From a virus (lineage: Duplodnaviria > Heunggongvirae > Uroviricota > Caudoviricetes): a stretch of DNA of 16,370 bases. Shown here piece by piece: positions 1-15,617 of the stretch. The stretch is taken from the IMG/VR virus record IMGVR_UViG_2724679059_000001. One strand, given 5' to 3'. Numbering within the stretch: position 1 is the stretch's first letter; each line of letters opens with the position of its first letter. Made by a program: the position numbers and the translations under genes. The notes under the pieces are model-generated. The model did no database searches, was not told the origin of the DNA, and was given only the letters and a program-made list of their open reading frames with translations.

Positions 1-342
1 CTACATACGACTCTGCTGCTTCTCCGTATGTACACGTTTGACTATCTTATAAATCCATTGCAGCGTCAGATTATATTTCTTCGCTAATTCGGCGTAGTTG
101 CGCCCATCGCACTCGCTATAGATTTGGTAGTCACGCTCCGATGCTCGTCCGGAGATCCCCTTAGGGAAATAAATGCTTTGTCCGCCCCAGTTACGCATCA
201 TTCGGTCGGCAATGGCAAAACCCACATTTTCTGCCGATGAACTGTCGAGATTGATGCTTTCAATCAGAACTTGCGATGCATGAAAAGCCAGGTCGTTAAT
301 GATCTCCGGTGTCCGGGCCATCTCTTTTGATTTTCGTATCAT
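1..342 (-). CDS. Mor/C-family phage transcriptional activator (Mu middle-operon-regulator-like)
   Basis: Complete 113-aa ORF (ATG at 340-342, stop at 1-3) with a GGAG RBS 7 nt upstream on the - strand. C-terminal half (GGQSIYFPKG...DGRNYAELAKKYNLTLQWIYKIVKR) matches the conserved Mor/C helix-turn-helix region from memory. Divergent from the tail operon. Confidence 0.8.
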   Translation of the reverse strand: MIRKSKEMARTPEIINDLAFHASQVLIESINLDSSSAENVGFAIADRMMRNWGGQSIYFPKGISGRASERDYQIYSECDGRNYAELAKKYNLTLQWIYKIVKRVHTEKQQSRM

Positions 343-562
343 TTTTCATCTCCATATATCTTGCATCCTGAATAAGACCCGATGCGTGTAAAACCACGGA
401 TATACGCTAAGCAGTTGTCATTACTGCTACTCAATACATTCAACAAACAAATAAACAATCACCAGAAATATAAATTCTTAATATTAATGTACGCATAAAT
501 TCACTAAATAAATATATTGTTTGTGTTATGTTTCTTGTCAACAGGAGTATCATTTTACACGA

Positions 563-582
563 TACTGTATGCACATACAGTA
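563..582. promoter_or_regulatory. LexA (SOS) box, TACTGTATGCACATACAGTA
   Basis: Perfect CTGT-N8-ACAG palindrome with TA flanks; matches 16 of 20 positions of the enterobacterial consensus taCTGTatatatatACAGta, including all the most conserved positions. Lies in the divergent intergenic region. A TATTAT -10-like hexamer (581-586) overlaps it on +, and a TTGACA -35 (541-536) lies nearby on -. Confidence 0.7.
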
Positions 583-878
583 TTATTTTTACCTGTAGTG
601 TAAAAAGATCGTTTCCCTCACAGTCGCTGACTTTCTTAAACAAACTTTAAAAATCAAATAACTATCGACTATTCCTACGATCCACCATCATCTTTTCCCT
701 GCATAATGACGCGCTTATTCGCCAGGTCACCGTTTGCTCTTTAATTGCTGAGTCGATTTATTAGCGGGCATGTTCATTTATAGAGAATCTATTTTTTAAA
801 CTTATTTATTAAAGCTTTTTTCATTCTTCACTGGCGGGTTCTGACGACACTAAACGCTCACTTATCAGGAGATATCGT

Positions 879-1166
879 ATGAAAAAAGTCACTTTTCCCC
901 GGCTTTCCGGCTGGCTGGTCGCTTCCGTCGCGCTGTTTGTCGTGATCGGCTGGACCTCTTCAGCACAGATCCCGGTCGTCATTTATAAACTAAGCCTGGT
1001 TTCGCTTTCCGCGGTTCTGGGATACTGGCTCGATCGCAGTTTGTTCCCCTGGGCACGGCCTGACTCTTTTAGCCCCTGGAAGGAACCGCGTTGCTGCGCG
1101 GCGGCAATGATTCGCCGCGCCATCATCGTTGCCGCCGTCTGTCTTTCCGTCGCCTTAGGGCTATAG
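879..1166 (+). CDS. small membrane protein, candidate holin
   Basis: 95-aa ORF with AGGAG RBS 8 nt upstream. Two to three hydrophobic helices (LSGWLVASVALFVVIGW; LSLVSLSAVLGYWL; AIIVAAVCLSVALGL). Sits immediately upstream of, and overlaps, the lysin gene. Holin role is positional inference only. Confidence 0.5.
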   Translation: MKKVTFPRLSGWLVASVALFVVIGWTSSAQIPVVIYKLSLVSLSAVLGYWLDRSLFPWARPDSFSPWKEPRCCAAAMIRRAIIVAAVCLSVALGL

Positions 1167-1168
1167 TG

Positions 1169-1774
1169 ATGTGGCTGAAATATATCGCGTCTATGATTAT
1201 TTTCGTTCTTTTCCCGCTTAACGCCTCTGAACCGCCGCGAGCCTCTCTGGCATGGCGAAACGAACTAATTCGTACAGCTCGAGAAGTCTGGGGGCTGAAT
1301 GCCCCAGTGGCCGACTTTGCCGGGCAATTACACCAGGAGTCCGCCTGGCAGCCAATGGTACGTTCCCCCGTTGGCGCACAAGGTATGGCGCAATTTATGC
1401 CTGCTACTGCGACATGGATAAGCCAGTTGTATCCACAATTGCGTGAAAACAAACCGTATAACCCAACCTGGGCGATTCGCGCGCTGGTGCAATATGACCA
1501 GCATTTGTGGAAAAACATCTCTGCGCAAAATGACTGTCAGCGTATGGCGTTTACCCTAAGCGCCTATAACGGCGGTCAGGGGTGGGTTAACCGGGATAAA
1601 AAACTGGCTGCATCCAAAGGGTTAGATGCCACTCGCTGGTTTGGTCATGTCGAGCAAGTCAACGCCGGGCGCAGCGCCGCGAACTGGCGAGAAAATCGTC
1701 GCTATCCAAAGATGATTCTCTATCAACACGCTGCCCGCTATTTACTCTGGGGACAGGCAAGCTGTCTTCACTAA
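1169..1774 (+). CDS. lytic transglycosylase (SLT domain) endolysin with N-terminal signal peptide or signal-anchor
   Basis: SLT catalytic motifs read directly: HQESAWQP...SPVGAQGMAQFMPATA and AYNGGQG. Hydrophobic N-terminus MWLKYIASMIIFVLFPLNA. The longest ORF starts at TTG 1091 but overlaps the previous gene; ATG 1169 (or GTG 1166) overlapping the upstream stop is the more likely start. Confidence 0.85.
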   Translation: MWLKYIASMIIFVLFPLNASEPPRASLAWRNELIRTAREVWGLNAPVADFAGQLHQESAWQPMVRSPVGAQGMAQFMPATATWISQLYPQLRENKPYNPTWAIRALVQYDQHLWKNISAQNDCQRMAFTLSAYNGGQGWVNRDKKLAASKGLDATRWFGHVEQVNAGRSAANWRENRRYPKMILYQHAARYLLWGQASCLH

Positions 1775-1786
1775 TCAGAGGGGCCG

Positions 1787-2101
1787 ATGAAACTCAGTAT
1801 CGATTTTTGGGAAGTGATCTCCCTTATGCTTTCCTTCGTTGGATTAATGTTTGCTGCCGGAAAACTGCTGTTAGCGCAAATTGAAAAACGACTTAATGAG
1901 CGTTTTGAGTCTCTGGAAAATGCCCGCAGGGAATCAGAAACAAGTTGGTCGAAACTGGAAAGAGAGTTTCTTGAATTTCGTGCCGAGCTTCCGCTGCATT
2001 ATGTCCGCAGAGAAGATTATCTTCGTGGGCAAGCAGTATTAGAAGCAAAGCTGGATGCCTTATATAGCAAAATCGAGCTGTTACAACGTGGCAGTTATTA
2101 A
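1787..2101 (+). CDS. membrane-anchored coiled-coil protein, probable lysis accessory (i-spanin- or releasin-like)
   Basis: 104-aa ORF with GAGGGG RBS. N-terminal transmembrane segment (ISLMLSFVGLMFAAGKLLL) followed by a charged, heptad-like helical region. Last gene before a strong terminator. Confidence 0.5.
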   Translation: MKLSIDFWEVISLMLSFVGLMFAAGKLLLAQIEKRLNERFESLENARRESETSWSKLEREFLEFRAELPLHYVRREDYLRGQAVLEAKLDALYSKIELLQRGSY

Positions 2102-2107
2102 ATACAT

Positions 2108-2140
2108 CCCCACCTTTACGTAAGTGTGGGGATTTTTTAT
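2108..2140 (+). terminator. rho-independent terminator after the lysis cassette
   Basis: GC stem CCCCAC (2108-2113) pairing with GTGGGG (2126-2131), immediately followed by ATTTTTTAT, just after the stop at 2101. Confidence 0.7.
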
Positions 2141-2247
2141 AGCCATTCAATTTTTTCTCTAAATCACATTAAAAGATTCTTCACCTTCACTGCTTCATAA
2201 TACATCTCAACGATAACGAAGTGAGCGGTAATTAAGGTACACCTCAT

Positions 2248-2703
2248 ATGAAAATTTTATCTGCAATGAATTATGTCATGGTCAAATTACGTGATCGGCA
2301 TCCTGAAATGGATATATTTATTTCATCTACGGATGCCCAGAAATATATTCCACAGACACAACAAGTTGCAGTGATTATTAATTATAGCGGTTCTGTCTTT
2401 ACCACACCCGAAAGCAGTGATGCCATCGTGCAACAGCAAATACTCCGCTTAACCGCCACCGTTATTGTTGACAAAAATTGTGACGCGTTAAACGCACTTG
2501 ATTGCATACGCAGCGCATTGGGCGGCCTTCAGCTTCCTGATTGCGATCGTCTGCTTTGGCTTGAAAAAGAAATTAATACGGGTGAGAGCGGCGGTTTCTG
2601 CCGCTACATCCTGGAAATGGCGACCAGCTCGCTGTTTATCGCTGAACAGGAAAGCACGGATCTTCCCCTGCTTACGGAAGTTAACTACGAGGAAACTGAA
2701 TGA
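2248..2703 (+). CDS. phage tail-associated protein (Mu gp37-like, possible tail completion or terminator protein)
   Basis: 151-aa ORF, first gene of the tail block. Its stop overlaps the next start (ATGA at 2700-2703). Family assignment is from gene order and recollection, not a search. Confidence 0.5.
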   Translation: MKILSAMNYVMVKLRDRHPEMDIFISSTDAQKYIPQTQQVAVIINYSGSVFTTPESSDAIVQQQILRLTATVIVDKNCDALNALDCIRSALGGLQLPDCDRLLWLEKEINTGESGGFCRYILEMATSSLFIAEQESTDLPLLTEVNYEETE

Positions 2704-2897
2704 AATACATCTACAACGGCCCGGCAAGCGGCGTCACCCTTGCCGATGGACAAGAAATCTTATTGTGGCCGAACAGTGAAATTGATCTGCCAGAAGACAA
2801 CGAGTGGGTCATGACCATGATTGCCCGCAATCATCTGACTCCTGTCATCACTCAGGAAGAACAAAATAACGTAGAGGAAATTGTACATGGCAGCTAA
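2700..2897 (+). CDS. small conserved phage tail-module protein (Mu gp38-like)
   Basis: 65-aa ORF, translationally coupled on both sides (ATGA overlap upstream; overlaps the sheath start). Acidic protein. Function unknown. Confidence 0.5.
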   Translation: MKYIYNGPASGVTLADGQEILLWPNSEIDLPEDNEWVMTMIARNHLTPVITQEEQNNVEEIVHGS

Positions 2898-4311
2898 TTA
2901 CCTGCACGGTGTAGAAACCATTGAAATTGAAACCGGCCCGCGTCCGGTTAAAGCGGTAAAATCCGCCGTCATCGCTTTAATCGGTACGGCCCCCTGCGGT
3001 CCGGTAAATAAACCAACATTATGCCTTTCTGAAAGCGATGCTGCGCAGTTTGGCTCGACTCAGGCTAACTTTACGATCCCACAGGCACTGAAGGCGATTT
3101 ATGACCACGGTGCCGGTACGGTGGTGGTGATTAACGTGCTGGATCCGGCAAAACATGGCTCCAACATCAGCAATGAGAGTATCACTTTTGACGCTAACAA
3201 CCAGGCGAAGCTCGCTCACCGCAATGTGCGTAACGTGGTACTAAAGCCCTCTTCATCAAATTCATCAACCTTTAACACCGCAGCATTTAGCGTAGATGAA
3301 CAAACAGGCATAATTACCCGTAAAGGAGCCGACATTCCTCCTGGTGCGAAAGTTTGCGCCTATTATTCCTGGTGCGACCCTACAAAGGTCACCGCAGCCG
3401 ATATTATCGGTGCCGTAAATACCGCAGGCGACCGCACGGGGATGAAACTCCTTCAGGACACCTATAACCTGTACGGTTTCTACGCCAAAATCCTGCTTGC
3501 TCCCGTGTTTTGTACGCAAAAATCAGTAACTACTGAGCTGATTGCACAAGCGGAAAAACTCGGTGCGCTTACCTACATTGATGCTCCGATTGGGACGACA
3601 TTCCAGCAGGTATTGGCTGGACGCGGTTCGCAAGGGGCTATCAACTTCAATACCAGCTCTGATCGTGTGCGTTTATGTTACCCACACGTCAAAGTTTACG
3701 ATGGCATCACTAACCAGGAAGTTCTCGAACCACTCTCTTCGCGCGCTGCCGGGCTACGTGCCAAAGTAGACCTCGAAAAAGGTTTCTGGTGGAGCAACTC
3801 AAACCAGGAAATTCAGTGTATTACCGGTATTGAACGTTCGCTTTCTGCAATGATTGATGATCCACAAAGCGAAGTGAATCAGCTCAACGAAAACGGCATT
3901 ACCACTATTTTCAATAGTTACGGTTCTGGTCTGCGCTTGTGGGGCAACCGCACAGCGGCATGGCCTACCGTGACCCATATGCGTAACTTTGAAAACGTTC
4001 GCCGGACAGGCGATGTAATTAATGAGTCAATCCGTTATTTCAGTCAGCAGTATATTGATATGCCGATTAATCAGGCTCTTATTGACGCGCTGACCGAATC
4101 GGTAAATACCTGGGGCCGAAAACTGATTGCCGACGGCGCACTGCTTGGCTTTGAGTGCTGGTACGATCCGGCGCGAAATTCACCGGCTGAACTCAGCGCC
4201 GGGCATTTATTGCTTAGCTATAAATTCACCCCGCCGCCGCCGCTGGAACGTCTGACGTTTGAAACTGAAATTACTTCTGAATATTTAGTCTCTCTGGAGA
4301 GCAATAGCTAA
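2887..4311 (+). CDS. contractile tail sheath protein (P2 FI / Mu L-like)
   Basis: About 474 aa, the size and position expected for a myovirus sheath, immediately before the tube gene. GAGGAAA RBS before ATG 2887; the longest ORF begins at TTG 2881. Confidence 0.85.
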   Translation: MAANYLHGVETIEIETGPRPVKAVKSAVIALIGTAPCGPVNKPTLCLSESDAAQFGSTQANFTIPQALKAIYDHGAGTVVVINVLDPAKHGSNISNESITFDANNQAKLAHRNVRNVVLKPSSSNSSTFNTAAFSVDEQTGIITRKGADIPPGAKVCAYYSWCDPTKVTAADIIGAVNTAGDRTGMKLLQDTYNLYGFYAKILLAPVFCTQKSVTTELIAQAEKLGALTYIDAPIGTTFQQVLAGRGSQGAINFNTSSDRVRLCYPHVKVYDGITNQEVLEPLSSRAAGLRAKVDLEKGFWWSNSNQEIQCITGIERSLSAMIDDPQSEVNQLNENGITTIFNSYGSGLRLWGNRTAAWPTVTHMRNFENVRRTGDVINESIRYFSQQYIDMPINQALIDALTESVNTWGRKLIADGALLGFECWYDPARNSPAELSAGHLLLSYKFTPPPPLERLTFETEITSEYLVSLESNS

Positions 4312-4835
4312 TGGCTGGAAAAATTCAAATTAACCGTATTACCAACGCCAATATTTATCTCGATGGTAATAATCTTTTAGGTCGTGCAACCGAAATTAAA
4401 TTGCCGGATGTCAGTTTAATTATGCAAGAGCATAAAGCACTGGGTATGGTCGGTAAAATCGAACTCCCGGCTGGTTTCGATAAACTGGAGGGGGAAATTA
4501 AATGGAACTCCTTTTATCAGGACGTAATGCGTAAAACGGCAAACCCGTGGCAGGCAGTAGCATTACAGTGCCGCTCCAGTATTGATTGCTATAACTCCCA
4601 GGGGAAAGCGAATCAATTAGCGTTAGTGACACATTTAACCGTGATGTTTAAAAAGAATCCCTTGGGCACATTTAAACAGAATGAAAACCCGGAATTCAGC
4701 AGCGCCTTTGGTTGTACTTATATTAAACAAGTGGTCGATGGTGAAACGCTGCTTGAACTTGATTATATGGCGAATATTTTTCGGGTTAACGGCGTGGATC
4801 AATTAAGTACCTATCGCAATAACATCGGTGGCTAA
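4311..4835 (+). CDS. tail tube protein (P2 FII / Mu M-like)
   Basis: 174-aa ORF; start overlaps the sheath stop (TAATG). Size and position match tube proteins. Confidence 0.8.
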   Translation: MAGKIQINRITNANIYLDGNNLLGRATEIKLPDVSLIMQEHKALGMVGKIELPAGFDKLEGEIKWNSFYQDVMRKTANPWQAVALQCRSSIDCYNSQGKANQLALVTHLTVMFKKNPLGTFKQNENPEFSSAFGCTYIKQVVDGETLLELDYMANIFRVNGVDQLSTYRNNIGG

Positions 4836-4839
4836 ATTA

Positions 4840-4859
4840 TTCGGGGCTACGGCCCCGAA
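4840..4859 (+). other. intra-operon RNA stem-loop after the tube gene
   Basis: Perfect 8-bp stem TTCGGGGC / GCCCCGAA with a 4-nt loop, directly after the tube stop; no U-tract follows. Possible mRNA stabiliser or partial attenuator after the abundant sheath and tube genes. Confidence 0.4.
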
Positions 4860-4885
4860 CTTCGCAACATAAATAAGGATACAAA

Positions 4886-5203
4886 ATGAAAGAGCATTAT
4901 ATCTTACAGTTCCCATTTACGTCGGCAGCAGGAAATACTATCGACTCGCTGCAATTACGTCGCCTGAAAGTAAAAGATATGCGCAACGCGCGCCGGATCA
5001 GCGAAAAACCCGAAGAGTGGGATGAACCGCTAATGGCGGCGATGACCGGACTGGTGCCAGAAGATTTAGCTGAAATGGATTTGCTGGATTACCAGGCATT
5101 GCAGAAACGATTTCAATCCATGCTTACCGTGGTTACAGAATCCTCCCCAGCTATGGCAGGCAATGGCGCTACTGGCGAGATGGTTTCGCTTTCCACCCAG
5201 TGA
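4886..5203 (+). CDS. tail assembly chaperone (P2 gpE-like)
   Basis: 105-aa acidic protein between the tube and tape-measure genes, the canonical chaperone position. AAGGA RBS. Confidence 0.6.
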   Translation: MKEHYILQFPFTSAAGNTIDSLQLRRLKVKDMRNARRISEKPEEWDEPLMAAMTGLVPEDLAEMDLLDYQALQKRFQSMLTVVTESSPAMAGNGATGEMVSLSTQ

Positions 5204-5392
5204 GATAGACGCGCTCACCATAGATGACTTTAGCAACTGGCTGGATGAAGCCAGCGACCAAATAAAGATCGAATATGGCTCGCAGACCTGATGTCTGCGA
5301 GTTCTTCAAAGCCCGCCAGGTTTATTTCTTCCCAGCCCCTTTTTTAGAAAAATAACCAGTGGGCCATTATCAATAATTAAAGAGAAACAATT

Positions 5393-6274
5393 TTGGCCAA
5401 CGATATTATTACCCAGCTTCAGGCGCGTAATGAGACGTTGACGCAGGCAATAGCCCGTTACGGCTCACTCAACGCCAGAACTTTGTTAGCTCTCTCTTCT
5501 CAGCAAGCGACAGTAATCAAACTAACGCAGCAACTTGCCGATTCTGCTCTCCGCCTGGAGGAAAATAGCCGGAACCGCGCTGATCTAATGGAGAAAACCC
5601 AAACATTTGCCGGGCAATTTAGCAAGGTATTCAATGTTGAAGCCCCCGACTGGAAGTTGCCATATGAGTTCCAGGACAACATGGTCAATATGGCGACCAA
5701 AGGTGGGATGAATGCTACAACCCGCGAGACGCTCAGCCTTAATCTGCGCGACTGGAGCATGGATTTTAACCAGCAGCAGACCACCTTACAGAACGCAGCC
5801 CAAACGCTGATCGAAGGCAATTTGTCGTCGATGCAGGATCTCAACCGTTATATGCCGGAGATCGCCAAAGCTGCCACCGCCACGCGCGAAAGTGCTGAAA
5901 CGTGGGCGAATGCCGCGCTCGCGACTCATGATCGATTGAATATTGCCCCGGAAAATTTCCACGCCACGCAAAACATGATGTATGGCATTAGCAAAAGCGG
6001 TGGGCCTGCCGTTGCCGAACAAACGCAGTGGATAGAGAAATTTGCAGGTAAAACCGGCGCTCAGGGTCTGGAAGGTATGGCTGAACTGACCGCCATCATG
6101 CAGATCGCCATGAAAAACGGGGCCAGCGCCAGTGCGGCGGCGGAGAATTTCGACCACTTTCTGCAAACCACCTTTTCGAAAAAACCGATAACTGGTTCGC
6201 CAGCCAGGGCGTTGATCTGCAAGGCTCTCTGCTTGAGCATCAGCAAAACGGTATGGGTGTTAGCGAAGCCATGA
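5393..6274 (+). CDS. tail tape measure protein, N-terminal part (gene apparently frameshifted)
   Basis: Ala/Gln-rich helical protein in the tape-measure position, starting at TTG 5393. The frame ends at 6274 while the continuation runs in another frame from an A6 tract at 6179-6184. Confidence 0.65.
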   Translation: MANDIITQLQARNETLTQAIARYGSLNARTLLALSSQQATVIKLTQQLADSALRLEENSRNRADLMEKTQTFAGQFSKVFNVEAPDWKLPYEFQDNMVNMATKGGMNATTRETLSLNLRDWSMDFNQQQTTLQNAAQTLIEGNLSSMQDLNRYMPEIAKAATATRESAETWANAALATHDRLNIAPENFHATQNMMYGISKSGGPAVAEQTQWIEKFAGKTGAQGLEGMAELTAIMQIAMKNGASASAAAENFDHFLQTTFSKKPITGSPARALICKALCLSISKTVWVLAKP

Positions 6275-7767
6275 CTCATATCGTGCAAATGCAGCTTGAG
6301 AAGATGAATCCGGCGATCCTCGGCACCTTCAAACGCACTATGCAGATTGAAGATTTATCTGCTCGCAGCAATGCGCTGCAATCGATGGTGACGCAATTTA
6401 ATCTGGGCGAAATGTTCGGCGATGCGCAAACTGTGGAATTCCTGGCACCTATGCTGGCGAATATGGAGGAATATCGCCAGTTAAAAGCCTCTGCCATGCA
6501 AGCCAGCAGCAAGAATCTGATTGATGCCGACTTTTCTGCGCAAATGGCCTCGCCCATTGAACAGACTAAAGCGTTACAGCTGGCGTTAAATGATTTATGG
6601 CTCAGCATTGGCTTGCAATTAATGCCGCTGATTGGCGAGCTGGCACAAAGCCTTACGCCGGTTGTTCGCCAGTTCAGCGCCTGGCTACGTGAGCACCCGG
6701 CACTGGTGCAAAACATTGCGAAAATCGTCGGGGCGATTTGGCTGTTTAACGGCGCGCTGAATGTTTTAAAACTGGGCGCGAACTTCATCGCCTCGCCGTT
6801 TATTCGTCTGGTCGATATCTTCCTGAAAGTCAGGGCAAGTCTGGCACTCACAGGCGGGGCAAGTAAGATGCTATCAGCGGTTAAGTCATTGGGTGGCGGT
6901 GCAAAATGGCTAACGCAACTGCTTGGTCGTGGCCTGATTGGCGCACTGAAACAGGCAGGTCAGACCGTCTTCTGGTTGGGTAGGGTTTTATTGATGAATC
7001 CCATTGGTCTGGTCATCACTGCGATTGCGGGCGCTGCTTATCTGATTTATCGCAACTGGGAGCCTATCTCCAGGTTCTTTTCTACCATCTGGCAACGTAT
7101 CACCACGGCCTTTGACGGCGGCATTGCAGAAATTTGTCGGTTAATTCTCGACTGGTCGCCGCTGGAGTTGTTCTATAGCGCCTTTTCCAGTGTGATGAAT
7201 TGGTTTGGTGTTGAAATGCCTGCGAGTTTTAGCGAGTTCGGCAGCAATCTTCTGGCTAGCCTGGCCGACGGCATAATGAATGCCTTCCCCGCTCTGAAAG
7301 GCATTATTGATCAGGTCAAAAACGTCATCCCAGACTGGCTAAAAACCACGATGGGTATTAGTACAGAAGGATCGGCTACAGCTATTACAAGCACGACTAA
7401 TACCGCATCCGTCTCCCCCGCGAGCGTTGTTCCAGGCGTTGCCGGTGCGATTTTAACGCCTCCGGTGGGGAAACAACTCGCGCCATCCAGTAAAACGACA
7501 ACGCCGCCATCGGCACCTGCGGCAAAAAATACAGCCGCCAAACCCGCATTGGCCTCTTTACCTGGTAAATCCGTAACCAAACCGGCGACGCTACCTTCCC
7601 GTTCCTCTGGAAAAGTTCAGGTGAATTTTTCGCCACAGATTACCGTGCAGGGTAACGGACAAAACACCACTAAAGAGATTCAGAACGTGTTGACGATGAG
7701 TAAACGCGAACTTGAAAGAATGATTAACGACGTAATGGCGCAACAACAGCGCCGGGGGTATGCCTGA
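6253..7767 (+). CDS. tail tape measure protein, C-terminal part
   Basis: Frame open from 6085; contains hydrophobic, glycine-containing segments and a Thr/Pro/Ala-rich tail typical of tape measure proteins. Ends with TGATG overlap onto the next gene. Adding one A at 6179-6184 fuses it to the upstream ORF. Confidence 0.65.
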   Translation: MGVSEAMTHIVQMQLEKMNPAILGTFKRTMQIEDLSARSNALQSMVTQFNLGEMFGDAQTVEFLAPMLANMEEYRQLKASAMQASSKNLIDADFSAQMASPIEQTKALQLALNDLWLSIGLQLMPLIGELAQSLTPVVRQFSAWLREHPALVQNIAKIVGAIWLFNGALNVLKLGANFIASPFIRLVDIFLKVRASLALTGGASKMLSAVKSLGGGAKWLTQLLGRGLIGALKQAGQTVFWLGRVLLMNPIGLVITAIAGAAYLIYRNWEPISRFFSTIWQRITTAFDGGIAEICRLILDWSPLELFYSAFSSVMNWFGVEMPASFSEFGSNLLASLADGIMNAFPALKGIIDQVKNVIPDWLKTTMGISTEGSATAITSTTNTASVSPASVVPGVAGAILTPPVGKQLAPSSKTTTPPSAPAAKNTAAKPALASLPGKSVTKPATLPSRSSGKVQVNFSPQITVQGNGQNTTKEIQNVLTMSKRELERMINDVMAQQQRRGYA

Positions 7768-8720
7768 TGTATGCCGTTTTAGGAGAGATTGAATTTAAGG
7801 TTGTCGCATTCTGGGACGGCTTTAAAAGCACAATGGGCGTGGATTACGCCACACATGCCCGTATAGAAGGCAAACCCGGTGTGCAGTTTATTGGCGATAA
7901 GCTGGATATGCTGGCGCTGGAATTTTCCCTGCACAGCCAGTTTTGCCAGCCCACAACAGAGCTTAATCGACTGCGTGAAGCCATGCTTGCTCACAAGGCG
8001 ATGGCACTGGTATTTGGCAATGGCGATTATCGCGGCTGGTTTGTAATTACGGAGCTAACCGCCACCCACCAGCACACCGATCCCTGGGGCAATGTGATTG
8101 CCCAAAACGGAACGATGTCGCTCCAGGAGTACACCGGCGATCCTAAAAATCCACTTTTACCTCCGGCGATTACCACCCAGGAGCCTAACATTGAGGAAAA
8201 GGCGAGCGATTTTCCCGACATGGTGGAGTCCTGGTTTGATCAGATATTAAACGCCATCGAAGAAGGTATGCGTAAGGCCAAAGAGATGCTGGATGAACTG
8301 ACACAAGCCATTGAAGATATTAAAAAAACGGTGGCAAAAGTGAAAGCAATGATTAAAGAGGCCAAAGTGTTAAAAGAAAAGTGTGAAAAGATAATTACGT
8401 CATTGAAAAAGACAATCGACGCCATCGAAACCCTGTTTAAACAGCCAATGGATCTGCAAACGCTGGCAGGACTCCCAAAAGCGTTGTCGGCGCAGATTAA
8501 AACTTTACTGGGTAACATGCCAGGTATCCGGGACTGCGCCAATGACGCCAGTACACTGGTTGACCATGCTCAGGCGCTTTTCGACGACATTACCAGCGAC
8601 ATCGCCGAAGCGACGTTTGATAAAGCCGCAACGTTGGTTGATCAGGCACGAACAACGGTACAACAAACCACTCCCACAGTGAGCCAGCTTGCTGCCGCGA
8701 CCATTACGAGGATCTGGTGA
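7767..8720 (+). CDS. tail protein with P2 gpU-like N-terminal domain and Lys/Glu-rich helical C-terminal extension
   Basis: 317-aa ORF between the tape-measure and gpX/gpD genes, the gpU position in P2-type order. C-terminal ~170 aa is K/E-rich and encoded by a visibly AT-rich stretch (about 8220-8480). Confidence 0.55.
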   Translation: MYAVLGEIEFKVVAFWDGFKSTMGVDYATHARIEGKPGVQFIGDKLDMLALEFSLHSQFCQPTTELNRLREAMLAHKAMALVFGNGDYRGWFVITELTATHQHTDPWGNVIAQNGTMSLQEYTGDPKNPLLPPAITTQEPNIEEKASDFPDMVESWFDQILNAIEEGMRKAKEMLDELTQAIEDIKKTVAKVKAMIKEAKVLKEKCEKIITSLKKTIDAIETLFKQPMDLQTLAGLPKALSAQIKTLLGNMPGIRDCANDASTLVDHAQALFDDITSDIAEATFDKAATLVDQARTTVQQTTPTVSQLAAATITRIW

Positions 8721-8929
8721 TGCGATACCTTGAACATATCACCACCGACGGCGAACGCTGGGATAATCTGGCATGGCATTACTACGGTGATGCGCTGGCT
8801 TATGAACGCATAATCGTCGCCAATCCACATGTCGCCATTTACCCGGTACTGCCTTCCGGTATTCAGCTCATTATTCCGGTCATTTCCGTCAATAAAACCT
8901 TATCGGAGATCCCACCATGGCTGAGATAA
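8720..8929 (+). CDS. tail protein X (P2 gpX-like, LysM-like)
   Basis: About 70 aa with the YYGD...ANP...LP.G pattern typical of gpX; overlaps the flanking genes. Confidence 0.7.
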   Translation: MRYLEHITTDGERWDNLAWHYYGDALAYERIIVANPHVAIYPVLPSGIQLIIPVISVNKTLSEIPPWLR

Positions 8930-9957
8930 GCGTAACTGGTGGCGTCTTTGCCACACTCACGCCCATTTTTACCCTCTGGTATGGGCATAAAGATATCACT
9001 TATGACATCACACCCTATGTCACCAGCATCAGTTACCACGACAGCATCAAAAACGAGTCAGATACCATCGCGATTACACTGGATGACACCGATGGACGCT
9101 GGATAAAAGAGTGGTATCCCGGCAAAGGCGATACGCTGGCGCTGCATATGGGTTATCAGGGGGAAAAGCTGCTCGATTGTGGTCAGTATATTATTGATAA
9201 AATTGATATTTCAGCGCCACCTTCTACGGTAAATATTGATGGCATCGCCACTTCCGTCAATCAGGCGCTGCGTACCCGTAACAGCCAGGGCTTTGAAGAA
9301 ACGACGCTTTCGGCTATCGCCAGCCGTATCGCCCAAACGCACGGTCTGAAACTGGTGGGCAAAATCGAGCCGCTCACCATCGACCGGGTAACGCAGTATG
9401 GTGAAACCGATGTCGGATTTCTCAAGCGCCTGGCCAGCGAATATGGCTATGCGGTAAAGGTGACCACCAAAGAACTGATTTTTTCGCATTTACCCACGCT
9501 GCGCTGCCTGGCGCCGGTAAAAACGATCGACCGCAAAGACGTTTCGCATTTCACCTTCAAAGATACCATTAACCGTATCTACAAAAATGCCACCGTACAG
9601 CATCAAAATAGTAAGAAAAAAGAACTGGTTATCTACACCCACGACAGCCAGCAAAAACCGTCTACCCGTGGAGTCGGCACCAGTGCCGACACGCTAAAAC
9701 TGAACAGTCGGGCGCCGGACGTTGGCGCGGCACAGGCAAAGGCCAACGCCGCGCTCGACAGCCACAACGAATATCAACAAACCGGAACGCTCAGGATGAT
9801 GGGCTGCCCGGAACTGACGGCGGGCAATAAAATTGAACTGACCGATTTTGGCGTGCTTTCCGGTCAGTGGCTGATTGATAAATCGACTCACAGTTTTGTG
9901 CGCAGCGGCTATACCACTGAAATCGACGTGTCACGCGGGCCAGCGACCAGCCAGTAA
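8917..9957 (+). CDS. baseplate hub / tail protein D (P2 gpD-like)
   Basis: 346-aa ORF directly after the gpX-like gene, the conserved X-D order. Size and position fit the hub protein. Confidence 0.8.
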   Translation: MAEISVTGGVFATLTPIFTLWYGHKDITYDITPYVTSISYHDSIKNESDTIAITLDDTDGRWIKEWYPGKGDTLALHMGYQGEKLLDCGQYIIDKIDISAPPSTVNIDGIATSVNQALRTRNSQGFEETTLSAIASRIAQTHGLKLVGKIEPLTIDRVTQYGETDVGFLKRLASEYGYAVKVTTKELIFSHLPTLRCLAPVKTIDRKDVSHFTFKDTINRIYKNATVQHQNSKKKELVIYTHDSQQKPSTRGVGTSADTLKLNSRAPDVGAAQAKANAALDSHNEYQQTGTLRMMGCPELTAGNKIELTDFGVLSGQWLIDKSTHSFVRSGYTTEIDVSRGPATSQ

Positions 9958-9966
9958 GGAGGAAAT

Positions 9967-10668
9967 ATGAAAGGAGTAACCCGTCAAACGGGGATTATCA
10001 GCGATATTGACGAAACCAGCGTTCGGGTGCGAGTCACGCTTCCGGAGTGTGACAATCTGAAGAGCAACTGGCTTGCGGTACTTCAACGCAATTCCCAGGA
10101 CAATAAAGACTACTGGCTACCGGATATGGGCGAGCAAGTGGAAGTTCTGCTGGACAATAACGGTGAAGATGGCGTGGTGCTGGGCGCAGTTTATTCTACG
10201 GTTGACACCGCGCCTGTGGCCTCGCGCGATAAACGTTACGTCCAGTTTTCTGATGGCGCAGCGTTTGAATATGACCGCAGCACCCACCAGCTGACGATTA
10301 ACGGCGGTATCGAGAAAATCGTGATTGAGGTTATCGACAGTACCCGCCTGACATCACCCAACGTTGAGATTAAAGCCCAACAGGTCACCGTGACTTCCGA
10401 TACCGTCGATATTAAAGCGACCGATGTCAGCATCGACGCCACTAAGGTCGATGTTAAAGCGGCAGCAGTGACGGTAGATGCGCCCATGAGCACCTTTACT
10501 GGCAATGTCACGGTAATGAAAAAACTCACCTGGCTTGGCGGGATGGCAGGAAGTGGAGGCATCGGTAACGCCGCCACGATAACTGGCAATGTCAACGTGA
10601 TCGGCAACGTTCAGGCCAGCGGCGCATTGCAGGACAGCGGTGGCAACTCCAACCACCATACACACTGA
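9967..10668 (+). CDS. baseplate central spike (P2 gpV / T4 gp5-like)
   Basis: Perfect AAGGAGG RBS. N-terminal OB-like region followed by beta-helix repeats (VTVTSDTVDIKATDVSIDATKVDVKAAAVTVDAP) and a His-rich C-terminus (NSNHHTH), consistent with a metal-binding spike apex. Confidence 0.85.
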   Translation: MKGVTRQTGIISDIDETSVRVRVTLPECDNLKSNWLAVLQRNSQDNKDYWLPDMGEQVEVLLDNNGEDGVVLGAVYSTVDTAPVASRDKRYVQFSDGAAFEYDRSTHQLTINGGIEKIVIEVIDSTRLTSPNVEIKAQQVTVTSDTVDIKATDVSIDATKVDVKAAAVTVDAPMSTFTGNVTVMKKLTWLGGMAGSGGIGNAATITGNVNVIGNVQASGALQDSGGNSNHHTH

Positions 10669-10673
10669 CGTTT

Positions 10674-10703
10674 AACCCGCCTGATGGCGGGTTTTCTCTT
10701 TTT
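10674..10703 (+). terminator. rho-independent terminator inside the tail cluster, between spike and wedge genes
   Basis: Stem AACCCGCC (10674-10681) / GGCGGGTT (10686-10693) with loop TGAT, followed by the T-rich run TTCTCTTTTT, 6 nt after the spike stop. Confidence 0.6.
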
Positions 10704-10766
10704 AATCAATCAGTTTTCTAAATCGCTTTAATATCGCCACAGCCCGTTCAGGGCGAAAATACCCTC

Positions 10767-11126
10767 ATGAACACAAAAACACGACCCTCAACGCTGCACT
10801 GGCAACCGGCCTTGCAGCGGCCTGAAGAATACGTCTGCGGACTGGATGATATTCACCAGGCAATACACATCATTCTGCGCACACCGCGCGGCAGTGATCC
10901 CCACAGACCGCTGTTTGGCAGCAACTTGTGGCACTACATCGATTACCCCATCGAGCGGGCAATTCCGCATGTGGTACGGGAGTCGGTGGAAGCCATCCGC
11001 CAGTGGGAGCCGCGCTGTCGGTTGCTGAAGGTGACACCAGTAATCGACGGCGAACATCTGACGTTACGTGTGCAATGGCGCGCCGCTGACGGCGTTATCA
11101 ACTCAACGGAGGTGTTATGGCGATAG
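10767..11126 (+). CDS. baseplate wedge protein (GPW / gp25 family)
   Basis: 119-aa ORF with gp25-like motifs (ILRTPRGSDPHRPLFGSNL...WEPR). Confidence 0.85.
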   Translation: MNTKTRPSTLHWQPALQRPEEYVCGLDDIHQAIHIILRTPRGSDPHRPLFGSNLWHYIDYPIERAIPHVVRESVEAIRQWEPRCRLLKVTPVIDGEHLTLRVQWRAADGVINSTEVLWR

Positions 11127-12232
11127 CCGAACCCAATTTTATTGACCGCGATCCTGCGCAAATTACCAGTGAGATGATTGCGCAATACGAAGATGCCAGC
11201 GGTAAAAAACTCTATCCGGCACAGGCTGAGCGGTTGCTCATCGACCTGTTTGCCTATCGTGAAAACCTTGTACGCATCGCCATTCAGGAAGCGGCGAAAC
11301 AGAACCTGGTCGCGTATTCCCGCGCGCCAATGCTGGATTATTTAGGGGAGTTGGTGGGCGTTCACCGTTTGCCTGCGCAGCCGGCAAAAACGACGTTGCA
11401 GTTTTCGGTCGTCAGCGCGTATACCAGCAATATCCTGATTCCCCAGGGAACGCGGGCCAGTGCCTCTGATAGCGTGATGTTCGCCACCGATGAAGATGTT
11501 CTGCTTCCGGCCAGGAGTTTGCATATCGCCGTTCCTGCCACCAGCCTCGCAGCAGGTGAACAGGGTAACGGCTGGCAGCCTGCACAAATTAGCGCACTGG
11601 TCGACAGGATTGGTCATTATGACATCAACGTAACCAACCTGACTGCGTCAACGGGCGGCTGCGGTGAAGAGAGCGATGACGCATTGCGCCAGCGTATCCA
11701 ACTGGCACCAGAAAGCTTTAGTAATGCGGGCAGCTATGGTGCCTACCGCTTTCATACGCTTTCTGTTAGCCAGTCGATTATTGACGTTGCAGTACTGGGG
11801 CCGGACGAGGGATTGCCAGAAGGCTGCGTGGAGATCTACCCGCTAACTCTGAACGGACTGCCGGGAATAGAACTGCTCGCGCAAATTGAACAGGAGGTTA
11901 GCAAGGAGAAAAAACGTCCGCTGACCGACAAAGTGAGTGCGAAATGCGCTCTTCGAGTGCCATATGAGATCCGTGCGCAGCTAACGCTGTTTACCACCGC
12001 CGATCAGGAGACAACGCTGGCTGCAGCGCGTAAAGCGATTAGCCTCTGGACGCAACAGCGGCAGAAACATCTGGGGCAGGACATTGTGCCAAACCAGATA
12101 ATCAAAGTGTTACAGGTCGATGGCGTCTATGACGTTGCGCTGAATATGCCTACAAAACGTATTTTGCAGGCGCATGAGTGGGCGGAATGCACCGCAATAG
12201 ACGTCACGATTGCCGGAGTCAGCGATGGATAA
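11117..12232 (+). CDS. baseplate protein J (P2 gpJ / T4 gp6-like)
   Basis: 371-aa ORF in the W-J-I order; overlaps both neighbours. Confidence 0.85.
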   Translation: MAIAEPNFIDRDPAQITSEMIAQYEDASGKKLYPAQAERLLIDLFAYRENLVRIAIQEAAKQNLVAYSRAPMLDYLGELVGVHRLPAQPAKTTLQFSVVSAYTSNILIPQGTRASASDSVMFATDEDVLLPARSLHIAVPATSLAAGEQGNGWQPAQISALVDRIGHYDINVTNLTASTGGCGEESDDALRQRIQLAPESFSNAGSYGAYRFHTLSVSQSIIDVAVLGPDEGLPEGCVEIYPLTLNGLPGIELLAQIEQEVSKEKKRPLTDKVSAKCALRVPYEIRAQLTLFTTADQETTLAAARKAISLWTQQRQKHLGQDIVPNQIIKVLQVDGVYDVALNMPTKRILQAHEWAECTAIDVTIAGVSDG

Positions 12233-12857
12233 ATTGCTGCCACCGCCGCCGCTTGCCAGCGATGAGCGTTTTTCGATTCTGGCAAATATCGCCGCCGAGC
12301 GTTTTGCCCAACTCGATCTGACGGCGTTGATGGTTTATCTGATCGACCAGGTTGATGCTTCGGCATTACCAGCCCTTGCAGAACAATTTCACGTTCAGGG
12401 GCTGGAAGGTTGGTTATTTACCACCGATGAGCGGGAGAAACGCGAGTTAATTAAACAAGCCATTGAACTGCATAAATATAAAGGAACAATTTGGGCGGTG
12501 CGGCGGGTGCTGGAAATACTCTCATTACCAGGAACTATTTCAGAATGGTTTGAATATGGGGGAAGGGCTTATTTTTTTAAGGTGGATATAGCGCTGGTGG
12601 ATAAAGGCCTGGATGAAAACCTTTTCAATGATTTGGTAGAACTCATTCATGAATATAAAAACACACGTTCAAAACTGGAAGCATTAATCGTCTGGATCAT
12701 TAACCAAAGTGCTATTCCTGTTATTGGCTGTGCACTTTATGGTGGTGAACTGACGACGGTTTTACCTTTCCAGATACGGGAAGTACAGCACAACACATCG
12801 ATTTATTACGGAACAGGGCAATGGAGCCTTGAAATTACATCTATTTACCCGGAGTAA
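12225..12857 (+). CDS. tail protein I (P2 gpI-like)
   Basis: N-terminal LLPPPPLASDERFSILANIAAERF and a KGT motif match the gpI family from memory. ATG 12225 overlaps the J stop; the longest ORF starts at TTG 12210. Confidence 0.8.
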   Translation: MDKLLPPPPLASDERFSILANIAAERFAQLDLTALMVYLIDQVDASALPALAEQFHVQGLEGWLFTTDEREKRELIKQAIELHKYKGTIWAVRRVLEILSLPGTISEWFEYGGRAYFFKVDIALVDKGLDENLFNDLVELIHEYKNTRSKLEALIVWIINQSAIPVIGCALYGGELTTVLPFQIREVQHNTSIYYGTGQWSLEITSIYPE

Positions 12858-12859
12858 TT

Positions 12860-14518
12860 ATGGACAATGAGTTTTATACTCTACTCACCGACAGGGGAAT
12901 GGCAAAAATTGCCAATGCTCTGGCGGATAAAAAACAGCTTCATCTACAAAAAATGGCTGTTGGTGACAGCGGAGGACAATATTATGAACCCACCGTCAGC
13001 CAAACTAAATTACGCCATGAAGTATGGCGCGGTGATTTAAATACATTAACAGTTGCACCCAATAACCCTAACTGGTTAATTGCGGAACTCGTGCTGCCCG
13101 AAAATATCGGCGGCTGGTATGTACGTGAAGTCGGCGTTTTTGATACCGATGGTGAACTCATTGCTATCGGTAAATTCCCGGAGTCGTATAAACCACTATT
13201 ACCCGGCGGCAGCGGTAAGCAAGTTTGCATTCGCCTGATTATGGAAGTTTCCAACACGACTGCGGTAACACTCACCGTTGACCCCAGTATTGTACTGGCA
13301 ACACGGGATTATGTTGATTCACAACTGGATGAACATGAGCGTTCGACTAATCATCCTGATGCTACGTTAACGCAAAAAGGCTTTACACAGTTGAGTAACG
13401 CCACTGACAGTGATGACGAAACCAAAGCGGCTACGCCAAAAGCGGTGAAAGCGGCAATGATTGAGGCTCGAAATCATCGTCATACCTGGAGTCAGATTAC
13501 TGATATACCAGATGGTACGCTGACACAAAAAGGGATTGTGAAGCTTAATAACGCGACAGACAGCAACAGTACGACGGAGGCGGCGACACCGAGCGCGGTG
13601 AAGGCGGCATATGACCTGGCGAATAGTAAGGCTGCGGGAAACCATACTCACCCATGGGGACAGATTACGGGTGTTCCAGACGGCACCCTGTCGCAAAAAG
13701 GGATTGTGAAGCTTAATAACGCGACGGATAGCAACAGTACGACGGAGGCGGCGACACCGAGCGCGGTGAAGGCGGCAATGGATAAGGCAAAAACTGCAGC
13801 TCCAGCTAATCATACCCACACTAGTTTTTATACTACAAATGGAACATTTATAGTTCCTGAGGGCGTAACAATATTATTTGTGGAAATTATGGGCGGCGGA
13901 GGTGGGGGGGCCGGAGGAGCACAATCATCACATTATGAAGCCTGCGGAGGTAATGCAGGAGAATTGATTGTTGATTACTTAAACGTGGCACCAGGCCAGC
14001 ATTTTTCAGTAAAGATCGGAGCTGGAGGTAATGGAGGTCCTTTTTGGAACAATCCACCTGTTTCACAAATAAAGTATTCGTATGATAAAACAGAGACAAC
14101 ACAAAAAAGCTTTGATGGTGGAGACTCTTCGTTTTCTAATCTAACTGCAAAAGGTGGCCATGGAGGATATAACATTTATCACTCTAACACTACGCAGCCT
14201 TATATAAAATTCAGTGACGATCCTAAAGGTACTCCACCAAATGCAATACCGTCATCTGCAGAATTTTATCCTGGAAAGAATGGTGAAAATTCTATATATG
14301 GAAAGGGAGGGGCTTCAGGTACTGTTATTACAGAAAACCTAAGTAATGGTGGAAAAAAAGCAGTAATGGCAAAGCCAACAGCAGCAACAGGTTATGGTTC
14401 TGGAGGAGCTGGGGGATCTTATTTACCTCCTTTTCAATATAAAAATAATGAGTTAACAAATTTAGGCAATACTAGCGGAACAAAAGGTGCCTCTGGCTTC
14501 GTAAAAATATCATGGTAA
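12860..14518 (+). CDS. tail fiber protein: P2 gpH / R-pyocin-fiber-like N-terminus, tandem fiber repeats, glycine-rich C-terminal receptor-binding domain
   Basis: N-terminal ~150 aa (LLTDRGMAKIANALA...MAVGDSGGQ...AELVLPENIGGWYVREVGVFDTDGELIAIGKFPESYKP...ATRDYVDSQL) matches the conserved baseplate-attachment domain of P2 gpH-type fibers. Three fiber repeats (TLTQKGIVKLNNATDS...AATPSAVKAA) follow, then an AT-rich Gly-rich C-terminus. Confidence 0.85.
   Translation: MDNEFYTLLTDRGMAKIANALADKKQLHLQKMAVGDSGGQYYEPTVSQTKLRHEVWRGDLNTLTVAPNNPNWLIAELVLPENIGGWYVREVGVFDTDGELIAIGKFPESYKPLLPGGSGKQVCIRLIMEVSNTTAVTLTVDPSIVLATRDYVDSQLDEHERSTNHPDATLTQKGFTQLSNATDSDDETKAATPKAVKAAMIEARNHRHTWSQITDIPDGTLTQKGIVKLNNATDSNSTTEAATPSAVKAAYDLANSKAAGNHTHPWGQITGVPDGTLSQKGIVKLNNATDSNSTTEAATPSAVKAAMDKAKTAAPANHTHTSFYTTNGTFIVPEGVTILFVEIMGGGGGGAGGAQSSHYEACGGNAGELIVDYLNVAPGQHFSVKIGAGGNGGPFWNNPPVSQIKYSYDKTETTQKSFDGGDSSFSNLTAKGGHGGYNIYHSNTTQPYIKFSDDPKGTPPNAIPSSAEFYPGKNGENSIYGKGGASGTVITENLSNGGKKAVMAKPTAATGYGSGGAGGSYLPPFQYKNNELTNLGNTSGTKGASGFVKISW
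13369..13790 (+). repeat. in-frame tandem repeat array inside the tail fiber gene (3 copies, about 168-bp period)
   Basis: 13526-13609 and 13694-13777 are 82/84 nt identical; a more diverged copy lies at about 13369-13450. Each encodes a T..KG(I/F)..L.NATDS...AATP.AVKAA unit followed by an H-x-H motif. Confidence 0.75.
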
Positions 14519-14524
14519 TTAAAA

Positions 14525-15139
14525 ATGACAAAATATGCTTGTTTTGATCCTGAAACATTTATCGTTCTGGACTGGATCGATACAGAACACTACAACTATC
14601 CTAAAGTAGAACATTTAGTTGAAATAACTGATCAGCAATGGCAGACATATGCGAAAGCTAATATCCCAATTTGGATTAACTGTGAAGATTTATCCTTTAT
14701 CTCTACGCCACCACCAGATAGATTTCACAAACTAAAAAAAGGAGAATGGATAGTTGATACAGATTCAATGCTTAAATTTATTTCAGAAATAAAAGCGGAT
14801 ATAATAAGAAGAATAAAATCCAAACGGGATTACGTCACAACCGATTACATCATCATCAACAACCATCACTTCCACAGTGATACAAACAGCCGTATCCAAC
14901 AGCTCTCACTCACAAAAATGGGAGCGGAGAAAAAAATCCCTCCAGGGTTAATGTGGAAAACTAAAAATAACGGTCTGATCGAGTTAACCAACGAGATCGC
15001 CGCCCAGTTTGAATCGGTAACAATGGATCACGATATGCGCCTGTTCGCCAATGCCCAGCACCATATCGCGGCGGTGGAAGCTCTGGACGATATTCAGGCG
15101 GTGCTCGACTACGATTATTCAACAGGCTGGCAAGCATGA
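14525..15139 (+). CDS. tail fiber assembly protein (P2 gpG / Mu U-like chaperone)
   Basis: 204-aa ORF immediately after the fiber. The C-terminal half (FANAQHHIAAVEALDDIQAVLDYDYSTGW) resembles the conserved Tfa region; the N-terminal half is AT-rich like the fiber tip. Confidence 0.8.
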   Translation: MTKYACFDPETFIVLDWIDTEHYNYPKVEHLVEITDQQWQTYAKANIPIWINCEDLSFISTPPPDRFHKLKKGEWIVDTDSMLKFISEIKADIIRRIKSKRDYVTTDYIIINNHHFHSDTNSRIQQLSLTKMGAEKKIPPGLMWKTKNNGLIELTNEIAAQFESVTMDHDMRLFANAQHHIAAVEALDDIQAVLDYDYSTGWQA

Positions 15140-15591
15140 GTAAAACCACTGTCTGGCTCGCTTGTTATAAGGGCCGAACAGAGCACCGTGGTATTGCCCG
15201 ACTGGCTGACTGGCTTACCCGTAAAATCACGCGCGGTAGTTATTCCCACTGTGAATTAGCCGTTAAGCATGGTGAAAAGAGTTACCTTTGTTACTCTGCA
15301 TCACTGCGCGATCGCGGTGTACGCGGAAAGATAATGCCATTGCCAGCGGATAAGTGGGATATGCTGCCGCTCCAGGCCAGCCTTCAGGACGTGGAAGCGT
15401 TTTTCCATAAACATGATGGCAAAAAATATGATTGGCGCGGCGCGCTTGGAATTATTACCGGTAATAAAGAACAGCGTGAACGCCTGTTTTGCAGCGAATT
15501 TTGTGCCGAATTTCTGCAATTAAAGGAGAGTTGGCGCTATTCCCCAAACCACTTGTACGCTTTAGTCAGTAGCTGGCAATATCAGCCGTAA
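15136..15591 (+). CDS. hypothetical Cys/His-rich protein; cargo gene translationally coupled to the tail-fiber assembly gene
   Basis: 151-aa ORF whose ATG overlaps the Tfa stop (ATGA at 15136-15139). Contains SHCE and FCSEFC motifs; I do not recognise the family with confidence. Confidence 0.5.
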   Translation: MSKTTVWLACYKGRTEHRGIARLADWLTRKITRGSYSHCELAVKHGEKSYLCYSASLRDRGVRGKIMPLPADKWDMLPLQASLQDVEAFFHKHDGKKYDWRGALGIITGNKEQRERLFCSEFCAEFLQLKESWRYSPNHLYALVSSWQYQP

Positions 15592-15596
15592 AATAA

Positions 15597-15617
15597 CGCC
15601 GGGCTTCACGCCCGGCG
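15597..15617. terminator. hairpin terminator shared by the convergent genes
   Basis: Perfect 8-bp stem CGCCGGGC (15597-15604) / GCCCGGCG (15610-15617) with a 5-nt loop. On the - strand it is followed by TTATTTTA, so it reads as an intrinsic terminator for the nucleotidyltransferase gene; it sits 6 nt after the + strand stop at 15591. Confidence 0.55.

Follow-up and report, generated by a model that had tools for sequence, protein, structure and literature searches.

A probable one-base contraction of an adenine run disrupts the tape measure gene of a head-less contractile tail cluster in Escherichia coli

The window analyzed here is a 16,370-nucleotide stretch of DNA (IMG/VR record IMGVR_UViG_2724679059_000001), in which a tape measure gene is divided between two overlapping reading frames at a run of six adenines. 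Comparison with related loci makes it quite probable that the break is a real mutation, a single-base contraction of an ancestral run of seven adenines that is inherited within a small lineage of E. coli, and not a recoding event.

Results

Organization of the interrupted gene

Positions 6172-6190 of the window read CTTTTCG AAAAAA CCGATA, and the A6 run at 6179-6184 (plus strand) is the site of the one-base deletion as judged by alignment to relatives. The first-pass annotation had described two overlapping frames (5393-6274 and 6085-7767) that meet at this run, of which the first looked protein-like only upstream and the second only downstream, and both parts of that description hold. The 5' fragment (5393-6274, plus strand) begins with a TTG start codon, passes through the tract as ACC ACC TTT TCG AAA AAA CCG ATA, and specifies 293 residues; the first 264 are native and end with ...AAAENFDHFLQTTFSKK, and the 29 that follow are out of frame and unrelated to the native protein, with a TGA stop codon at 6272-6274. 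The 3' part (6085-7767, plus strand) lies in the -1 frame relative to the first. It opens directly after a TGA at 6082-6084, but the segment from 6085 to 6178 is merely open and non-coding, and the frame is native from 6184/6185 onward, corresponding to Thr265 through Ala791. Across the junction it reads ...EKTDNWFASQGVDLQGSLLEHQQNGMGVSEAMTH..., and from the adenine run onward TDNWFASQGVDLQGSLLEHQQNGMGVSEAMTH....

Both halves align over their full length to one protein family and are thus not a chance pair of open reading frames. The Pfam match to PF10145 (PhageMin_Tail) covers residues 120-305 of the repaired or intact protein and residues 120-260 of the truncated product, a shortening that places the break within a conserved domain. 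Two antisense open reading frames, at 5786-6166 and 6061-6288, are without support.

The intact gene in E. coli and IMG/VR

In a megablast search with positions 5300-7800, 195 of 5,426 complete E. coli genomes proved to carry the locus, and the top matches, although reported as 100% identical, span 2,502 bases for a query of 2,501. It had been predicted that adding one A would yield a continuous protein of about 790 residues with a particular junction sequence, and E. coli S10 bears this out exactly: it is annotated with one 791-residue 'phage tail tape measure protein' that reads ...TTFSKKTDNWFASQG... over the junction. An A7 run is the sole junction difference between S10 and the window, the flanks are identical, and so is the rest of the gene; over 13.6 kb the two sequences differ only at this tract and by a single nucleotide polymorphism at position 3817. 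The ancestral A7 codons are AAA AAA A-CC, encoding Lys263, Lys264 and the beginning of Thr265.

A 64-base A6 query centred on the tract matches all 195 of the locus-bearing genomes and none of them exactly. The A7 state was scored from the spans of these matches, and in a spread sample of 60 complete genomes every match (60/60) is one base longer than the A6 query. The reciprocal 65-base A7 query returned 107 matches as against 195 for the A6 query, a shortfall that we attribute to low-complexity seed masking, and this count was not used. In all, 194 of the 195 genomes appear to hold the gene as one open reading frame, and E. coli Q5 alone was found with A6. IMG/VR contigs with the same flanks have A7 in three cases of three, among them one (L024) that starts at the window's first base and differs from it only by the tract base and one substitution. 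In a large protein collection the exact intact protein is present on at least 1000 contigs, and the exact 293-residue product on 6 contigs among the matches listed in one look-up and on 11 contigs besides the window in another. The A6 form thus makes up about 1% or less of the observed copies; a metagenome scan for the tract gave no match. An A7 run within a single open reading frame is therefore the state in the sampled E. coli genomes and IMG/VR contigs, which supports the earlier reading of the break as a one-base homopolymer deletion, put forward alongside a slippage-prone tract and a sequencing error.

Homologues in other genera

Homologues of approximately 735-795 residues, each a single protein continuous over the junction, are present in E. 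albertii, E. fergusonii, Salmonella enterica, Citrobacter and Enterobacter, and also in Scandinavium, Dryocola, Phytobacter (Metakosakonia) and Superficieibacter. None is encoded by design as two proteins with the same junction, the arrangement that had been named beforehand as telling against a deletion. Whole-gene dN/dS is 0.18 between S10 and Q5, and 0.17, 0.14 and 0.09 in the comparisons with E. albertii, Salmonella and Citrobacter respectively; the tape measure gene evolves under purifying selection as one open reading frame.

The adenine run is another matter. Among eight species-level loci compared at the DNA level, an A7 run is confined to E. coli, E. albertii and Superficieibacter electus, and in the other five (Salmonella, Citrobacter, Dryocola, Phytobacter and a second Superficieibacter) the run is interrupted and the protein is intact. 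Junction codons elsewhere include AAA GAA ACG, GAA AAG ACG, AAA CAG ACA, AGG AAG ACG and AAA AAG ACC, and the Lys-Lys pair is replaced by KE, EK, KQ, KA or RK in other homologues. Because these codons vary across genera, the run itself is not conserved.

The closest true phages of the cluster are Bcepmuvirus, with a tape measure identity of only 28-35%. The 'split' tape measure of phage PhiKM was considered and set aside, as its split is a sequencing gap and lies at a different place.

Inheritance of the deletion and the possibility of sequencing error

At least ten other runs or assemblies yield contigs that encode precisely this truncated protein. Six A6 assemblies (L005, L006, L008, L009, L012 and L013) contain no other indel and have either no mismatch or one mismatch to the window over 2-13.5 kb, and the clean Logan assemblies derive from separate runs (ERR2223728, SRR29019208, SRR24837532, ERR14005118, SRR15989021 and SRR15989017). 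Where there is a single mismatch it is always at position 3817, and the three clean A6 assemblies that cover this position all have the ancestral G. This suggests a nested pattern of descent, in which the change from A7 to A6 came before the substitution in the window. Two of the assemblies from different runs (L005 and L006) differ at 1 in 4608 bp of their chromosomal flanks and are thus separate isolates; the L005 and S10 flanks have three differences in 1.7 kb. Recurrence of the same A6 allele in several clean and independent assemblies indicates that the deletion is probably real.

The substitution at 3817 is private to the window, which has T where every other compared sequence, whether A6 or A7, has G. 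In the sheath gene it turns codon 313, GGT (Gly), into TGT (Cys), and it is the second non-synonymous change in the cluster besides the frameshift.

The alternative that the strain has A7 and an intact gene, and that one A was lost in homopolymer calling, had been raised by the first-pass annotation, and we regard it as unlikely. Seven-base homopolymers are classic undercall sites for 454, Ion Torrent and Nanopore sequencing, the window resembles an IMG/VR-type provirus excerpt of an isolate genome, with the A7 contig L024 starting at the same base, and no complete RefSeq E. coli genome with the window's allele has A6. Three other A6 assemblies (L007, L010 and L014) also contain several additional homopolymer deletions and are probably noisy data. 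However, the tract is the only indel over 13.6 kb relative to near-identical sequences including S10, the variable fibre region aside, and all other cluster genes except the fibre are the same length as in S10. The window contains five other 7-base runs, and those at 8322 (A7) and 12572 (T7), the only ones in the region where S10 and the clean assemblies align with the window, are the same in all of them. At least six assemblies that show no other error, from several independent runs, moreover share this A6 allele, and the window consists of this haplotype with one private substitution, as descent predicts. An inherited, real deletion is now more likely than a sequencing error given this recurrence, and for the window strain itself we consider such a deletion likely, on the strength of these comparisons.

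Programmed frameshifting at the tract and in the chaperone gene

The first-pass annotation had found no canonical X_XXY_YYZ heptamer in the upstream frame and judged programmed -1 frameshifting unsupported, a view with which we concur. The in-phase heptamer is G_AAA_AAA, which allows only a single-tRNA, fully cognate slip and is not a canonical slippery heptamer. The 80 bases at 6185-6264 fold at -20.2 kcal/mol compared with a shuffle mean of -22.8 (z = +0.82), so that no downstream structure is apparent, and there is no AGGAGG-like or Shine-Dalgarno-like element upstream of the tract. No family was matched in an Rfam search of the window, and scans for promoters and terminators near the junction give no signal above chance. 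The two-frame arrangement is conserved neither in E. coli genomes nor in other genera. Together, the single open reading frames of the relatives, the missing stimulator and the lack of a canonical heptamer refute programmed frameshifting at the adenine tract.

Directly upstream of the tape measure gene is a tail assembly chaperone gene (4886-5203, plus strand; PF10109, P2 E / Mu gp41 type). It is overlapped in its +1/-2 frame by an open reading frame at 5070-5291 (plus strand) whose product (...WQAMALLARWFRFPPSEIDALTIDDFSNWLDEASDQIKIEYGSQT) is conserved in all eight of the loci checked. Mu is reported to use -2 frameshifting at this chaperone gene pair (PMC5009743). The 5070-5291 frame is expected to be a Mu-type programmed frameshift extension of the chaperone, and would then be the real recoding site of the cluster. 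It is missing from the RefSeq annotation of S10.

Predicted consequence of the deletion

Loss of one A from the ancestral A7 run, within the Lys-Lys-Thr codons, would presumably have arisen by replication slippage in the homopolymer, the usual cause of such events. Translation from the normal start would then leave the frame after Lys264, add 29 wrong residues and stop at 6272-6274, and the remaining 527 residues, which are in the -1 frame, would have Met288 or Met294 as their earliest start. Standard decoding should therefore give a 293-residue N-terminal fragment and no full-length tape measure. From what tape measure proteins are known to do, the cluster should have lost most or all of its capacity to assemble tails of normal length, and we infer that the A6 allele has lost tape measure function. 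The deletion appears to be recent, as nothing else is damaged in the gene or the cluster.

The first possible start codon of the second frame is the ATG at 6253 (Met288), which would give a 504-residue product; a search for this product returned only contig-end truncations and was uninformative. The stop codon of the truncated frame overlaps an in-frame ATG (Met294) of the downstream frame in an ATGA at 6271-6274 (plus strand), and it is here that gene callers start a 498-residue product in A6 assemblies. This overlap was made by the frameshift, which is why a separate 498-residue protein is predicted in these assemblies.

Recurrence of the A6 state and alternative roles for the break

The tract is likewise A6 in E. 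coli Q5, whose allele of the locus is clearly different (96.3% identity over 6 kb). The Q5 tape measure gene is labelled 'frameshifted' by PGAP, and it is otherwise free of defects once one A is put back. The presence of A6 both on this distinct allele and in the window lineage indicates that the site has been struck independently at least twice. Two further assemblies (L011 and L014) suggest additional A6 backgrounds, but they are mosaic or noisy. This recurrence fits a mutational hot spot.

Could the interrupted gene nevertheless be functional? A split tape measure, in which the second piece is made by termination and reinitiation at the ATGA and the two pieces assemble together, perhaps into a shorter tail, is favoured by the overlap of the first stop codon with an in-frame ATG and by the 498-residue product that gene callers predict there. 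It is very improbable, however, because the ATGA would not be there but for the frameshift, homologues show no split at the junction, neither ATG (6253 or 6271) is preceded by a Shine-Dalgarno sequence, and the split cuts PF10145 and deletes residues 265-293. We give equally little credence to the idea that the run is kept as a phase-variable contingency tract for reversible A7/A6 switching of tail particle production between ON and OFF states. The occurrence of A6 on at least two allele backgrounds and the A7 run common to E. coli, E. albertii and S. electus would be in keeping with it, but the run is missing, and the protein intact, in the five interrupted species-level loci described above (5/8), and the OFF state is rare, having been identified in 1 of 195 complete genomes (Q5) and in none of the 60 genomes scored by match span. 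Contingency tracts are typically longer than seven bases, and with five other 7-base runs in the window an A7 here is unremarkable. The rarity of A6, at about 1% or less of copies, and the lack of conservation of the tract argue against a maintained phase switch.

It is somewhat less improbable, yet still doubtful, that A6 acts as a leaky 'savior indel' that lowers tape measure output without abolishing it and so throttles a costly, lysis-dependent tail particle. The geometry is suitable, as a -1 slip of tRNA-Lys from AAA (6182-6184) to AAA (6181-6183), followed by ACC, would give ...SKKTD..., identical to the A7 product, and one extra A inserted by RNA polymerase would also give the exact wild-type protein. 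Each tail requires only a few tape measure copies, and independent A6 events number at least two, one in Q5 and one in the window lineage. Compensatory low-level frameshifting is documented at homopolymer indels, for example at the G7 run of herpesvirus thymidine kinase, and A-rich heptamers are shift-prone in E. coli, A_AAA_AAA much less so than A_AAA_AAG (PMC5009743). On the other side, the tract has no stimulatory structure, no upstream Shine-Dalgarno-like element and no canonical in-phase heptamer; A6 at its low frequency is not maintained; and simple mutational bias would predict the recurrence just as well. RNA polymerase is not known to slip appreciably on runs shorter than about eight to nine bases. 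Leakiness at A6 is probably small. A broader version, in which the A7 run is a recurrent mutational 'fuse' whose repeated contractions produce leaky OFF alleles, with rare slippage or stuttering rebuilding the wild-type protein and reversibly damping a costly tail particle, we consider a long shot. A simple loss-of-function deletion remains the preferred reading of the break.

The head-less tail cluster between lysC and rlaP

The tape measure gene belongs to a head-less contractile tail cluster of the Mu/BcepMu type that extends over 1-15591 of the window, as judged by gene content and Pfam matches, on the plus strand with the exception of Mor, which is on the minus strand at 1-342. It comprises Mor, a holin, a lytic transglycosylase (SLT), a gp37-family protein, sheath, tube, chaperone, tape measure, gpU, X, D, V, W, J, I, the tail fibre, a DUF4376 protein and a 151-residue open reading frame. 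The cluster lies between lysC and rlaP, the latter (15606-16370, minus strand; PF10127, an RNA repair pathway nucleotidyltransferase) forming the right-hand chromosomal border. The same genes follow lysC directly and in the same order in S10, E. albertii, C. freundii and Salmonella (L001, L019, L020 and L022). Genes for the capsid, packaging, replication or integration are missing from all of them, as is seen in the interval from lysC to rlaP in S10, C. freundii, E. albertii and the window. The gene content, a complete contractile tail set together with lysis genes, resembles that of R-type tailocin loci. The earlier statement that the deletion would disable tail assembly thus concerns, on gene content, a head-less cluster, either a prophage remnant or a candidate tailocin, and not a complete prophage.

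Several further features of the locus were observed. In C. freundii, rlaP is followed by a Band_7 gene and then rtcR. Variation within the cluster resides in the tail fibre gene (13597-13780 and 12860-14518), which shows clustered substitutions and repeat-like secondary matches; the fibre is 552 residues long in the window, as in the E. albertii locus (L022), and 608 residues in S10. Over its entire length the window has no match of approximately 100% among complete E. coli genomes. In one Salmonella locus (L019), two glycosyltransferase genes (15966-18442; PF00535 and PF19528, GT_STM0557_N) are inserted between baseplate genes V and W and constitute O-antigen-modification cargo within the tail operon.

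A head-less tail cluster with its own activator and lysis genes, found at one site in Escherichia, Salmonella and Citrobacter and under purifying selection, has the appearance of a maintained tailocin-type locus, and we regard it as a candidate enterobacterial tailocin. A literature search found no paper showing particle production or killing by the lysC-rlaP cluster. The 'tailocin' described in ST131 (PMC9205054) was considered in this connection; it is a prophage-borne P2/R2-pyocin-like set, and no link to the lysC-rlaP cluster was established.

Discussion

We have described here what is most likely an ordinary and recent loss-of-function mutation, an event of a kind that is already known. 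The two open reading frames are best annotated as one frameshifted tape measure pseudogene, and not as two genes or as a recoding event. In strains of the small A6 lineage the lysC-rlaP cluster probably no longer yields normal tails. The context is of more interest than the break itself, and natural pairs of A6 and A7 strains would provide ready-made controls for tests of killing particles.

The break closely resembles the homopolymer-indel pseudogenes of prophages and prophage remnants, which PGAP labels 'frameshifted' and in which a one-base change in a run splits a conserved open reading frame that is intact in near-identical relatives. Here too the relatives are one base longer and have an intact frame, the two pieces follow a single protein family in order and the break falls inside a domain; there is no substantive difference from such pseudogenes, and in this case the same site has been struck at least two times independently. 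The tail chaperone frameshifts of lambda (G/GT), P2 (E/E+E') and Mu (-2) share the neighbourhood and the general plan, in which two overlapping frames give one longer product. Their signal, however, is a feature conserved among phages and sits in the chaperone gene, ahead of the tape measure gene, whereas the A6 break is internal to the tape measure gene, lacks a stimulator and is not seen in homologues.

As in the savior-indel cases, such as the G7 run of herpes simplex thymidine kinase, the change is an indel in a 7-base run at which a low-level slip would restore the native protein, although for the A6 tape measure gene such restoration is conjectural. The E. coli A-run sites for -1 frameshifting, dnaX (A_AAA_AAG) and IS1 (A6C), differ from the tract described here in that its in-phase heptamer is G_AAA_AAA and not A_AAA_AAG.

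The cluster as a whole has counterparts at two levels. It has the gene order and lysC-side location of the Salmonella locus, which carries gtr-like glycosyltransferase genes, as described for the Salmonella Typhimurium 'Def4' prophage remnant, and which we take to be Def4; the probable assignment of Def4 to the lysC position also draws on LT2 gene numbering. R-type tailocins of the R-pyocin type have a full contractile tail set accompanied by a holin, a lytic transglycosylase and an activator, and the cluster in the window is likewise equipped.
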